In this document: positions 335 through 39,845 of the stretch, in pieces
How positions within the stretch are numbered: the first letter of the stretch is position 1
Layout of the letters: every line of letters begins with the position of its first letter
Assembly (NCBI GenBank): GCA_964016885.1
Contig: OZ024759.1
Location: forward strand, 18,848,001-18,912,000
Length of the DNA stretch: 64,000 nt
Source: Eledone cirrhosa
Lineage: Eukaryota
Direction: 5' to 3'
Program-made: the position numbers and the translations under genes
The notes under the pieces: generated by a model
Database searches by the model: none
What the model was told of the DNA's origin: nothing
The model's input: the letters and a program-made list of their open reading frames with translations, nothing else

Positions 335-695
335 TAGAAGTTATATTTAATTTGTTGGGATACAACAAGCAAATATTTTTATAACTGATATAAAGCACTC
401 AACAAATTTTTGGAGTAAAAATACAATATATTAACAAATGGAAACTATATTTATAAAACCATATTTATTTCATTATACATATTTCAAGGACACCAAAGCA
501 AATTACGGGACTATCCGGGAGCTTCCAACAGACATGGTCGCATTCTTTAAGGGTATGTCAATATTCGTTTATAAAACTGATCTATATTATATTTTATCTG
601 ATGAAAGCGCACCATAATTTGCTTTGGTGTCCTTGAAATATGTATAAAGAAATAAATATGGTTTTATAAATATAGTTTCCATTTGTTAATATATA
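335..695 (+). mobile_element. TA-embedded Penelope-like/retrozyme-like terminal fragment (family A) with inverted partial copy
   Basis: 79-bp inverted arms at 427-505 and 615-693; HHR motif inside; second copy of the sense part at ~22241-22382; flanked by (TA)n. Confidence 0.65.
590..654 (+). ncRNA. Type I hammerhead ribozyme motif (family A)
   Basis: TATTTTAT-CTGATGA(598-604)-AAGCGCACCA..TGGTGTCCTT-GAAA(635-638)-TATGTA-TA-AAGAAATA; one mismatch in stem I. Confidence 0.7.
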
Positions 696-726
696 TATAT
701 AGTTATGTAATAAACAACATAAGGCA

Positions 727-794
727 ATTATTCCATTTACCAGTGGTTTCTTAAAAGCAAAAGATTTTGTTTTCAATCCTCAGAATGAAAAAAT
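727..794 (-). ncRNA. Type I hammerhead ribozyme motif (family B, minus-strand copy)
   Basis: Reverse complement of 861-928 with one stem II substitution; core intact. Confidence 0.75.
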
Positions 795-860
795 CCTGGT
801 CTGTTTATTGAATTTGGATTTAAAATTTTTTTTAAATCGAAATTCAATAAACAGACCAGG

Positions 861-928
861 ATTTTTTCATTCTGAGGATTGAAAGCAAAATCTTTTGCTT
901 TTAAGAAACCACTGGTAAATGGAATAAT
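861..928 (+). ncRNA. Type I hammerhead ribozyme motif (family B)
   Basis: TTTCATT-CTGAGGA(872-878)-TTGAAAGCAAAA/TC/TTTTGCTTTTAA-GAAA(905-908)-CCA C TGG-TA^AATGGAA; all three stems pair. Confidence 0.85.
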
Positions 929-1409
929 TGCCTTATGTCGTTTATTACATAACTATTAAGCTCTGTTACCTACATAGAGCACTCTTTTTTCCTGGACTTT
1001 TCCGGCGGAATTACTTTATTCATATATATATATATATATATATATATATATATATATATATATATATAAAACACTCACGATCACTCACAAAGTAAATCTA
1101 CATGTGTTTCTAACTATTTGACTTTGCATGCTGATATCTTAAATGAATTCCGAATACGATTCGTCTTTTTATTTATCTAATTATTTCTGTCGTTCCTATA
1201 CAAACTCAGAGAGGTAATTCCTAAATATTTGCACGTATTTTCACGTACACTGAAAATTGTTGCTTTCAAACTATCCTTCACTGTTTACTGAAAAGTTGAG
1301 TACATTTCTGTTGTAATTACATAACTGTATCCCGAAGGTATTATCACTTGTATTAAAACGATTTTACCTATTTAATTTTCATACTCTTGCTGCTTTACTT
1401 GCGTAATAA

Positions 1410-1860
1410 ACTTCTTTCTCTCTGTCTATCTCGTTCACTCTTTCGTTCGCGCCCTCGTGCACTCTATCTTTCGTTTGCTCTCTCCTCTTTTTCCTCTAAT
1501 CTCTCTTCTCTCGTGTCTGTGCTCTTCTCTCTCTCCCCTTTATGCGTGTGTGTGTTTTTCTCTCCTCGCTCGCTCTTTCCCTTACTCTCTCTCTCTCTCT
1601 CTATCTTTCTCCTACTACCTTGCTCTCTTTCTATCTCTATCTCTCTCTGTCTCTCTCTCTCTCGCTCCTTTCTTTTTAACGCACACATTCTTTTTCTTAT
1701 TCTTCTCTTTCTCGCTCATCTCTTTCTCTCTATCTGACACACTCTCTCTTGCTCCTCTCTTTCTCTCTATCTCATACATTCTGTCTTGCTTCTCTCTTTC
1801 TCTCTTACACACACACACACACACACACACACACCCCTTCTCCCCTTCCCTCTCTATGGA
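1410..1860. repeat. CT-rich low-complexity tract with (CA)n
   Basis: Degenerate (CT)n read directly. Confidence 0.9.
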
Positions 1861-2214
1861 TTTACCTGAAGATTCTCTTACAATAACTATGTTTCTGTAC
1901 TTATTTATTCATTTATTTATTCATTTACTCATTTAGTCATTCTTATTTCGTCTTTGTTCACTATGTTGCTTCTTATTTATCATAGAATTCAAATTGCTTT
2001 TATCTACCAACTTCATTTAGCTGCTTTCAAATGAGAATGACAACTCTTTTCGTTTTGAATAAACGTCTTTTTCAAAGAGATTACTGCAGATATTTTTAGC
2101 AAGAATTCTTGAAATTATTTAAACTACTACTTATTATATAAAGTGTCAAATAGTTGATTAATACGATCTAAGCTCAATACATCCAATTATCAATTTTGTA
2201 AAGAATGAGATAGT

Positions 2215-2790
2215 GGATTTGCCAGTATTATTAACATTTCGGGCAACATGCTTTGCAGCATTTAGTTACGGCCCTTTATATTCTTAGAATAAATCCCACC
2301 TTATGGGATCGAGAAAATAAAGTACCAGAAATGCACTGGGGTCAATTTTATCGACATTCCCCTTCCATTCTAATTGCTGGCCTTGTGCGTAAATCAGAAG
2401 CCATTATTAGAGCGACTGGTAACATGCTTTTTTACGTTGTGAGTTCAAATCCTATCGAGGTTAACTTTTGATTTTCATCGTTATAGGGTCGATGAAATAA
2501 AGTGCCAGAAACGCACTGGGTTCGTTTTTATCGACATTCCGCTTGCCTTCTAATTTCTGACCGAGTGCCTAAATCAGAAACGATTATTATAGCACCGGTC
2601 AAAATACTTTGTGGCATTTAAGTATGGATCTTTACATTCGGAAACCAAATTTCACCGAGGTCGGTTTTTGCCCTTTATTCTTCCGGGGTCAAATAAATAT
2701 GATATCTATCCAGTACTGGGGGTTAATATACTTAATCTTTTCCTCACCCAAAATTACTGGCCCTGTGCTAAGATTAGAAAACATTATCTT
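2215..2790 (+). mobile_element. Three tandem diverged copies of the major octopus tRNA-derived SINE
   Basis: Repeated GAGTTCAAAT..GGTCGAT.AAATAAAGTACCAG..CACTGGG..TTGCTGGCCTTGTGC..AGAAAC motif series. Confidence 0.85.
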
Positions 2791-2919
2791 TCAGTAAGGA
2801 CTACCAAATGCCTGTTGATCCTGGTTTCTATCTGCTAGTAACAAACAATATCATGGAAGCCCATTTTTAAAAAATGAAGATACATATACAGAGAGACAGA
2901 CGGTTACACATACATACAT

Positions 2920-37179: not shown

Positions 37180-37602
37180 ATGTCTAGTATAGGCACAAGG
37201 CCAGTAATTGTGGGGGGGGGGGAGAAAGTCGATTAAATCGACCCCAGTACGTTACTGGTGCTTTATTTAATCGACCCGTAAGGATGAAAGGCAAAGTTAA
37301 CCTCGGCAAGATTTGAACTCAGATCATAAAGGGTCGTAACTCTACACTGCAAAGCATGGCGTCCGACGCTCTACCGATACTGCAATACACCGCTCTAATA
37401 AAAGACAAATAAATGTTTCTATATTTGGCACAAGGCCAGCAATTATCCTAGTGCATTACTGGTACTTTATTTTATTGACACCGAAAGGATGAAAGGCAAA
37501 GTTAACCTCGGCAGGATGTGAAGTCAGAACGTAAAGGGCCGTAACTCTATGGTGCAAAGCATGTTGTCTGACGCTCTACCGATTCTCCCAATCCACCGCC
37601 CT
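37180..37602 (-). mobile_element. Two tandem young major SINEs (long and short form)
   Basis: Copies at 37180-37395 and 37413-37602; TAATAAAAGACAA flanks the first. Confidence 0.92.
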
Positions 37603-37944
37603 TAAGAGACAATAATAGTCACATAGTAGAATAAATTGGGATATTTGCTTCAGCTCTCTCAGTTCTCTGAGCTCAAATACCCGCGAAATCAACTTTGTTT
37701 TAGGTCGATAAAAAAGTACTAGCCCAATACGAGGATCGACGTTTTCTCGCTTTATCTCTTCCCGTTTCTCTCCTTCTCTGAAAGAAATCGGTTGCGTTTA
37801 GACTTGGAGAGGGAATGGGCTTTGCTGGGTTTTAAAATGTCCAGGACAGGCCATATGTCATAATGGCGCCCTTGCGACACCAAGAGAATTTACATTTTCA
37901 TACGTACAATTAAATATAAACGAAAGGTTTGTTATCAAATTAAT

Positions 37945-38119
37945 TGTTTCTACTTTTGGCACAAGGCCAGCAATTATCCCAGTGTATTACTGGTACTTTA
38001 TTTTATCGACCCCGTAAGGATGAAAGGCAAAGTTAACCTCAGCGAGATTTGAACGGGCCGTAACTCTTTGCTTCAAAGCATGGCGTCAGACCCTCTACCG
38101 ATACTGCCAATCCACCACC
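37945..38119 (-). mobile_element. Young major SINE with 17-bp TSD
   Basis: TTTGTTATCAAATTAAT at 37928-37944 and 38120-38136. Confidence 0.93.
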
Positions 38120-38654
38120 TTTGTTATCAAATTAATGTTAGCCTCTTTATTCAAGTAAATACTATACAATAGCCATACTTATTTAAAGCAGATTTCTCTG
38201 CTTACAAACATCGACACCACCAAATTAACAATTCAGCAACATTATCATTATTTTAATATTTAATGTTTTATTTGCACTGCTGTAGCCCTATAAAAAGACA
38301 CTCTATTTTTAAGTTTGATTATTTTTCTATAACTAAGGAACAAAACAAAAGACATAATAGAAATCATTAACATAACGTAAGTGCTATGCAAATCTATATA
38401 TTTATGCATCAAACTAAAAGTAAGAACATTTATGAAACGGGAAATTTCTGTCTGTGTAGTTTGTAGTAATTAAACTACAAATCAATATATGATGAAAAGA
38501 TAAAACTACATGTAGACACTCTAATAGAAATGGGGAGTTTAAATTGATTACTTGCCTGTCATTGATCAGACTATCACTCTGCCTACATACCAAGCTATCT
38601 ACCTACCTATCTAACTGCCTAAACACCACACTATTTAGCTATATATCAATTAAA

Positions 38655-38838
38655 TAATTGTTTCTACTTTTGGCACAAAGCCAGCAATTACCCAGTGCAT
38701 TACTGGTACTTTATTTTATCGAACTCGTAAGGATGAAAGGCAAAGTTAACCTCGGCAGGATTTGAACTCAGATCGTAAAGGGAAGTAACTATACTGGAAA
38801 GCATGTCCGACCCTCTACCGATACTGCCAATTCACCGC
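38655..38838 (-). mobile_element. Young major SINE, short form
   Basis: Full-length match to 59221-59410. Confidence 0.92.
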
Positions 38839-39374
38839 CAACTTATCTAACTATCTATCTATCTCTTTCTATATATATATATATATAACGAAGGAAGTGT
38901 AGCAAGGAACCAGGTGGACCATAACGCACCAGAGTACTCGATACTTAGGGTAGTAGAGTGGGTAATAGGAAATTAACTACTGGGTTAGTTCAGATCTAGC
39001 TGTCGAAACGGCCAGAGCTCAGCCGTCGGGGTCCTGACTCATTTCCTATATATATATATATATATATATATATATATATAGGAAAAAGTATGACCCCGAC
39101 GGCAGAGCTCAAGCCATTTCGACGGCTGTTTCTGGACTCTGAGTCCATAAATAGCCGTCGAAACGGCTTGAGCTCTGCCGGCGGGGTCATACTTTTTCCT
39201 ATTACCTACTCTACTACCCTAAGTATTAAGTACTCTGATGCGTTATGGTCCATCTGGTTCCTTACCATATTTCCATTGTTATATATATATATATATATAT
39301 GTATATATATATATATATATATATATATATTAAAATATAAATATTAATAAAATAGATGTTCTTTTGATCAATTA

Positions 39375-39429
39375 CATTTTATTATACATATTTCGGATGT
39401 ACAACAGTACGTCCTCATCAGACAAAATA
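39375..39429 (-). ncRNA. Type I hammerhead ribozyme motif (family E)
   Basis: TATTTTGT-CTGATGA-GGACGTAC TGTT GTACATCC-GAAA-TATGTA-TA^ATAAAATG on the minus strand. Confidence 0.88.
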
Positions 39430-39571
39430 TGATACATGACATACCCTGAGATGTTAAATGGTTAAGATTTAATCAAAGTAGTGATTAGACATAATCATTG
39501 AATATCGTTTAACACTTTTATATATATATATATATATATATATATATAAATATATATATATATATATATAT

Positions 39572-39845
39572 GCTTTTATATTTAATTTTATTTCATTCCT
39601 TGTATTTTGATCATGCTTTATTTTTACTTTTATTTTTAATTTCATTCGCACCGTTTCCTTTCGCTATATGTCTCTCCACCACTCCCCTACACACCCTTTG
39701 AACTCTGTTCCCACACACTTCTTACCCGAGGAAGGGCTTATGCCCGAAACGTCGTTCCCCACCACCACCCCACTCTCCAGAGCGTGAAATTAATAAACAT
39801 TCGTTGTACTGCCTCTCTGTTTTGTTCCTGTTCAAATTTTTCCAT
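39572..39845 (+). mobile_element. Penelope-like 3' end with degenerate minimal HHR
   Basis: CCGAGGA-A GGGC TTAT GCCC-GAAACGTC at ~39726-39753, AATAAA downstream, (TA)n on both sides. Confidence 0.6.

Follow-up and report, generated by a model that had tools for sequence, protein, structure and literature searches.

The window analysed here is a stretch of 64 000 nucleotides (nt) of Eledone cirrhosa DNA (GenBank assembly GCA_964016885.1, contig OZ024759.1, positions 18 848 001 to 18 912 000 of the forward strand), in which short islands between (TA)n microsatellite arrays carry motifs of type I hammerhead ribozymes. A preliminary description of the window, made from the letters alone, listed seven complete motifs, and a scan of the window confirmed all seven on the strands given, each with the CUGANGA, GAAA and UH core elements and with stems I to III in type I order. 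The hammerhead-shaped motifs are real; self-cleavage of the RNA at UH is predicted. Very probably, the islands are 5′-truncated 3′ ends of mobile elements residing in TA arrays, mostly Penelope-like elements (PLEs) of the Hydra clade and, for two families, non-coding units.

We designate the island families by letters. At the left end an inverted arm of family A (336–508, minus strand) is 5′-truncated within stem II, so that it holds only the 3′ half of a hammerhead, and has a long 3′ tail; the direct arm (510–690, plus) carries a type I hammerhead at 590–654 with a predicted cut after 646. Family B follows as an inverted arm (703–828, minus; hammerhead 730–791), whose short 3′ end adjoins the TA run ending A, and a direct arm (829–1020, plus) with a hammerhead at 864–925 and a tail, the terminal hammerhead of a Hydra-like PLE. 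An A sub-type lies at 22225–22380 (plus; hammerhead 22279–22344), and family E, related to A and with a long non-coding upstream part, at 39335–39518 (minus; hammerhead 39375–39429). Family C (14330–14900, minus) consists of a non-coding 468-nt unit present head to tail in 1.2 copies, with a full hammerhead at 14404–14489 and a second, truncated one at about 14870–14897. Family D is present as a 5′-truncated piece of a permuted 841-nt non-coding unit (34545–34810, plus; hammerhead 34550–34667 with a branched stem II of 83 nt) and as a fragment of the 3′ tail whose truncation point lies 3′ of the hammerhead (10378–10510, minus).

Further islands hold variant or decayed hammerheads. Family G forms an inverted pair (12683–12886) with decayed hammerheads (cores at 12821, plus, and 12814, minus) in the 3′ untranslated region (UTR) of a Hydra-like PLE. 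The family F island (12936–13186, minus) has a hammerhead at 12988–13034 with the U3-A8 core TTGAGAA and the pair G10.1-C11.1 in stem II. An inverted stump of family J (14076–14270) is the 3′ half of a variant hammerhead, and another stump lies at 23060–23200; the full form, with core CAGAAGA and a 4-bp stem III, is complete at 43914–43964 (minus) and 58347–58397 (plus), both beyond the span of the preliminary description. Family H is seen as hammerhead 3′ halves, one single and one inverted pair (38890–39278); in the one complete copy found, the core is of U3-A8 type and stem III measures 4 bp. Family M (39575–39830, plus) has a minimal-type core at 39726, ACGT as stem III and a weak stem I; its core is CCGAGGA in the window and CTGA[AG]GA in 8 of 10 pattern matches.

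Our relaxed final descriptor recovers 7/7 motifs in the window against a mean of 0.04 and a maximum of 1 in 100 dinucleotide shuffles made in 500-nt blocks. Two stricter descriptors recover 4/7 and 5/7, the latter's five comparing with a mean of 0.02 (100 shuffles); the stem II junction rule was loosened only after these misses were known, and C (14404) and D (34546) are recovered only if junction mismatches are allowed there. Permitting one core mismatch gains no motif in the window and raises the shuffle mean to 1.1 per window. Three copies depart from their families: that at 590 (A) by an A·A mismatch in stem I, that at 727 (B) by a G-to-A change in stem II, and that at 34546 (D) by lacking the G10.1-C11.1 pair present in its family. 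Among the matches listed in Rfam searches over the window or parts of it the hammerhead model is absent, C, D and the 22279 motif being covered by a single search, in the best 150 of its 301 matches. MicroRNA-type Rfam matches were dismissed, as they arise from inverted pairs and microsatellites, and a general repeat search of the window was dominated by microsatellites.

The density of motifs in the window, for which comparison with shuffled sequence had been proposed, is therefore far above that control. The preliminary description also counted about five degenerate motifs; such motifs exist, in greater number (489−, 12814−, 12821+, 13026−, 14181+, 14894−, 23104−, 39002+, 39122−, 39157+, 39726+ and others). 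Its statement that stem III is always a short (near-)palindrome fails for families H and J, in which a 4-bp stem III closes a loop of 7–9 nt. Its description of the families as unrelated is only partly right: A (590, 22279) and E (39375) are homologous and share stems I and III and their flanks.

The genome was searched with the islands, the best 40 of 308–2627 first-look candidates being taken for each, and two open reading frames (ORFs) met by chance in the flanks served as protein queries. Longer genomic copies of A, B, F, G and J extend upstream into ORFs with a reverse transcriptase (RT) and a C-terminal nuclease. In family G a hammerhead is present at 23 of 30 Hydra-like ORF loci, the regions downstream of the ORF are 74–89% identical to window positions 12635–12934, and the frames are open over 591–628 amino acids (aa), with YRDD and a C-terminal VIY...YVG region; the reading frames of the A, B, F and J parents are broken. 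For F, a same-strand Hydra-like protein match lies at most 900 nt upstream in 11/30 loci, and the core is TTGAGAA in 28/30, a covariant U3-A8 pair. The hammerhead of A stands about 1.7 kb beyond the nuclease end, after an AT-rich 3′ UTR, and three loci are 81–86% identical over the ∼ 2 kb from nuclease end to hammerhead. Stumps of J trace to another ORF at three loci, with the CAGAAGA core and a longer stem III; the change of U4 to A is seen in 33 of 47 matches. In family B the order at two loci is ORF, hammerhead B′, ∼ 1.1 kb, hammerhead B; B′ and B are related, and the spacer between them, rich in element-borne TG/TA repeats, is common to the copies. An inverted ORF beside B in locus L187 was not counted, its 3′ UTR being different. 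The two hammerheads in such a 3′ UTR, at L190/L375 and L191, have a near-identical stem III.

Judged by motif, these parents encode RT followed by a C-terminal GIY-YIG-type nuclease in a single ORF. The CxCx5C linker and CxxC are found in all five, and CxH in those of B, F, G and J, CxxC and CxH standing around the conserved E and N. Parents G and J carry RWR and DKT, and B carries DKS; RWR and DKT were not seen in the A and F parent copies, which are truncated or broken. Their hammerhead lies in a 3′ repeat, insertion is into (TA)n, and by eye the ORFs resemble Hydra-1_Obim. BLASTP of the Hydra-like proteins against a 1217-aa PLE protein gave no significant match. Membership of the Naiad group was dismissed, since the nuclease is C-terminal and the hammerheads are complete. 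Most islands thus likely derive from coding Hydra-clade PLEs, as far as homology and motifs can tell.

Other PLEs were met in the retrieved loci. Fragments of Penelope/Poseidon type (L025:393–1181 and L192:4013–4711) have RVT_1 and GIY-YIG matches in Pfam, the GIY-YIG matches falling just below the curated cut-off, and a related 3′ end lies near 40720–40800 of the window. A very young family in L181–L183 (e.g. L183:1437–5087, minus) has open frames of up to 1218 aa, protein copies that are 95–98% identical, and a CxxxxCxxC linker that we take to be Neptune-like. Its 3′ repeat contains a hammerhead core and stem II, with no recognizable stem I or III, followed by a long hairpin, and has no Rfam match.

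Families C and D are of another kind. C is a head-to-tail unit of 468 nt with 35% GC, and 15 hammerhead-to-hammerhead spacings measure 458–469 nt (30 loci). D is a unit of 841 nt with 40% GC and spacings of 832, 841 and 841 nt; a strict match places its tail ahead of the unit start in 18 of 30 loci, and none of its copies ran into an ORF. The longest ATG-initiated ORFs are 30 aa (C) and 76 aa (D), and neither unit matches PLE proteins. Both are circularly permuted around the hammerhead, with circular-fold z-scores of −5.3 for C (30 shuffles) and −3.5 for D (15 shuffles). They have the non-coding head-to-tail unit, single type I hammerhead and low GC content of non-LTR (lacking long terminal repeats) retrozymes, and exceed the 150–450 bp of such units. 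C and D are therefore likely, by their sequence organization, to be retrozyme-like except in size. ORFs beside C (L009, L017, L025), D (L192) and E (L342, L385) were dismissed as separate neighbouring insertions because they are set apart by orientation, by a TA array in between or by a 3′ end of their own. At L038:1883–2700 another tandem unit, with 695-nt spacing and a hammerhead with a stem II of ∼ 90 nt, suggests more large retrozyme-like families.

To gauge abundance, 60 evenly spaced 10-kb stretches (599 800 bases) of the 3.0-Gb assembly were scanned with a descriptor broadened to admit the U3-A8 core and a minimal stem III as well. The sample contains 42 motifs, in 20 of the 60 stretches, against 0, 3, 5, 1 and 3 in five shuffles, which extrapolates to ∼ 1.9 × 10^5 motifs genome-wide (bootstrap 1.1–3.1 × 10^5); families C, D and F had no match each in these ∼ 600 kb, and copy estimates for these three are too coarse. 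(TA)6 or longer lies within 200 nt downstream of 37/42 sampled motifs compared with 10.7% of background positions. Conversely, 107 of 501 TA arrays (21%) border on the 3′ terminus of an element of the hammerhead families versus 11–25 in 10 random placements; within the window 22/82 do. Over all retrieved loci, 19 motif groups recur in at least three loci. In 12 of them stem III forms a perfect palindrome, in four it has one central unpaired base and in three it is ATATGTAT, in a tally for which the descriptor demanded only two closing pairs.

With query loci left out, TA stands at the 5′ junction of 40/58 D and 11/19 C copies, at the 3′ junction of 49/58 and 18/19, and at 17 of 20 inverted ends, against a background of 2.9%. 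Distances from the cut site to TA are bimodal (A ∼ 50/∼ 140, B ∼ 35/∼ 105, E ∼ 55/∼ 155, F ∼ 65/∼ 220 nt), and the two 3′ end points per family match the PLE 'tail' described in PMC11167929. Near-perfect inverted pairs adjoining TA runs, with no hammerhead inside, also occur at 12215–12634 and 16190–16445 and are likely PLE ends truncated before the hammerhead.

We propose the following scheme, drawn from PLE biology. The C-terminal nuclease would nick (TA)n, so directing insertion there; reverse transcription would start at a site within the element RNA, shortly 3′ of the hammerhead, and would usually end early. Starting near the hammerhead and stopping early, it would almost always copy the hammerhead, and the three steps together would leave hammerheads stranded between TA arrays. 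The predicted role of the hammerheads is cleavage of the element RNA. With a short self-complementary stem III, two of them in a tandem or read-through transcript could cut as a dimer and free unit-length RNA, possibly circularized in C and D, which likely borrow the enzyme of a Hydra-type PLE. Most of the ∼ 2 × 10^5 copies would be passive stumps.

Several points weigh against this account. Cleavage, RNA and circles stand as predictions only, and a search of sequencing runs with the D unit listed no RNA data set. In constrained folding of all seven motifs the hammerhead fold lies 0.5–5.9 kcal/mol above the predicted minimum, and in 4/7 stem III fails to close as a monomer. The identification of RT and nuclease likely holds, on the strength of motifs and by-eye comparison; no Pfam family was matched by the Hydra-like ORFs (0/3 tested), and a PDB sequence search with them was empty. 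The link of B to an ORF comes from two loci only, E showed no ORF link in 14 extended stretches, the ORFs nearby belonging to other families, and C and D have no identified partner element. The A/E copies used for covariation were picked by descriptor and are related by descent. In the anole PLE, according to PMC11167929, hammerhead cutting is dispensable for insertion in vitro and no reads end at the cut site.

It is possible, though we think it the less probable course, that the elements are as described and the hammerheads act mainly as structural or protein-binding signals, or travel as passengers, cutting being minor for mobility. Insertion of the anole PLE independently of cleavage is in keeping with this, as are the spread of Naiad PLEs without canonical hammerheads (PMC8557442), the poor cutting of minimal PLE hammerheads in vitro (PMC4209133) and the retention of the U4-to-A core by family J. 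Several observations argue against it. When 150 copies were selected solely by BLAST, variation affected 15/1643 cells at the 11 core positions versus 1179/37 290 elsewhere, so the core is less variable than its flanks; the catalytic pair is kept through the swap from C3-G8 to U3-A8; a sister of C, ∼ 70% identical, retains the core and the stem III palindrome despite a one-base insertion; and the C and D units are permuted around the hammerhead. In 13 related A/E-group copies 99.5% of cells pair, and both sides change in 5 of 15 pairs, giving a covariation of 0.368 against 0.253 when shuffled. This signal is weak because of how the copies were chosen and their common descent; stem covariation with an invariant core is nevertheless seen across the A/E group and the BLAST-picked copies together.

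That all families are independent non-coding hammerhead retroelements, as the preliminary description had it, is very unlikely. The window contains no PLE ORF, C and D are non-coding, and E has no ORF link; for C and D this reading stands. It is refuted for A, B, F, G and J, which reach ORFs in longer copies and appear in the window as 3′ UTR stumps of coding PLEs, and the homology of A and E contradicts independence. The search it had proposed for an upstream RT and GIY-YIG ORF accordingly succeeded, by motif, for those five families and found C and D non-coding. Its other proposals fared better: the connection with PLEs and retrozymes was upheld, by the PLE-like ORFs of the five families and the retrozyme-like C and D, as were the association with TA, now genome-wide, the stem covariation among genomic copies and the inverted, 5′-truncated arrangement, the copies having fixed 3′ and variable 5′ ends.

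Somewhat less probable still is that recombination, and not an RNA stage, has spread C and D as satellite-like tandem DNA. They are tandem units, and their RNA stage is a prediction; their copies are, however, dispersed over many chromosomes as one or two units each, with fixed 3′ ends, variable 5′ ends and TA flanks, and form inverted pairs at 10/29 C loci. Chance matches in AT-rich, self-complementary DNA, where stems pair readily and a one-mismatch core scan finds about one match per shuffled window, can be set aside with near certainty, being refuted by the shuffles of both the window and the genome sample and by the hundreds to thousands of first-look candidates per family.

The interpretation as PLE ends and retrozyme-like units can be compared with published systems. 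That PLEs of the Hydra clade combine hammerheads with (TA)n insertion is already in print (Craig et al., 2021, PMC8557442), and the clade includes the Octopus bimaculoides family Hydra-1_Obim, listed in a supplement. The parents described here share with that clade the C-terminal nuclease, RWK/R, DKT, CxCx5C, CxxC and CxH, a canonical 3′ hammerhead and (TA)n insertion, and the Hydra-1_Obim stem III, ACCA-A-TGGT, resembles that of family B, ACCA-C-TGGT. They differ in the presence of U3-A8 or U4A cores and in the 3′ UTR, which measures 0.2–1.7 kb and in one case contains two hammerheads. The Hydra-like parents found here number at least five; that work has one Octopus family among its supplement rows and 'a small number' outside cnidarians.

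Retrozymes as non-autonomous PLE derivatives are likewise in print. Like non-LTR retrozymes (Cervera & de la Pena, 2020, PMC7229834; Li, Clavereau & Pollet, 2026, 10.64898/2026.07.22.740005), C and D are non-coding, head-to-tail, have one type I hammerhead and a GC content below 45%, and co-occur with PLEs. Described retrozyme RNAs measure ∼ 170–400 nt and their repeats 150–450 bp (same sources); C at 468 nt and D at 841 nt, about twice that size, differ, as do their stems II of 50 and 83 nt and their occurrence mostly as one or two dispersed units in TA arrays. The PLE hammerheads and min-HHR of Cervera & de la Pena (2014, PMC4209133) share with ours the type I form, the palindromic stem III, the unpaired base starting stem II, the U3-A8 variant, opposite-strand pairs 100–700 bp apart and a prevalence of single truncated copies. 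Here stem I (up to 8 bp) and stem III (4 bp) are longer, the stem II junction contains a 1 × 1 mismatch in several families, and the motifs greatly outnumber the 2000–9000 per genome given there. PAc, a Poseidon PLE of the anole (PMC11167929), is alike in its AT-rich target, its hammerhead in a terminal repeat and an optional 3′ tail that results from the use of two start sites of reverse transcription; it belongs to another clade, and its tails are 30–40 nt compared with ∼ 70–160 nt here.

In the literature searched, neither these families nor their numbers are described, and the same holds for the two-hammerhead 3′ UTR, the 0.8-kb units and the variant cores, Repbase, Dfam and several supplements being outside the scope of the searches; nothing since 2021 was found on non-autonomous hammerhead PLEs in molluscs. 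The main text of an Octopus vulgaris repeat annotation (PMC13282606) mentions neither 'hammerhead' nor 'ribozyme'. The families may be present in Repbase, Dfam or the supplements of the 2026 preprint and the Cervera papers.

The window holds other repeats. At 22440–22885 lies an element bearing a transfer RNA (tRNA) (ARAGORN tRNA-Ser(CGA), 22523–22595, minus; Rfam tRNA, 36 bits), with a ∼ 260-nt tandem unit, inverted pairs adjoining TA and 2068 first-look candidates; no hammerhead of its own was found in 15 loci. Minisatellites occupy 32286–33326 (32 bp, 32.5 copies, 98% matches) and 7776–9034 (20 bp, 63 copies). A ∼ 190-nt repeat resembling a short interspersed element, at ∼ 30 dispersed sites (e.g. 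57809–58001 and 59226–59409), has neither hammerhead nor tie to TA. The fragment at 47125–47520 is presumably the end of an RTE-type long interspersed element ORF.

Since elements of this kind are already known, the finding is mainly a gain in annotation: many short 'unknown' islands between TA repeats are PLE ends missed by Rfam and Pfam. A wider reading, which we put forward only tentatively and think rather unlikely as a whole, is that Hydra-type PLEs and oversized retrozymes (0.47–0.84 kb) form a major and recently active component of the genome, with ∼ 2 × 10^5 hammerheads in at least 19 groups invisible to Rfam. If so, the elements may build the TA load of the genome, given that their 3′ ends adjoin at least one-fifth of TA arrays and that TA/TG tracts occur in some 3′ UTRs, and the B 3′ UTR would be a nascent retrozyme that could free a ∼ 1.1-kb non-coding RNA from a coding element. 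Should cleavage be confirmed, the families would provide an extensive natural collection of hammerhead variants (U3-A8, U4A, stem II of 11–97 nt) and coding/non-coding pairs, with which the role of the hammerhead in PLE mobility and the origin of retrozymes from PLE ends could be tested.

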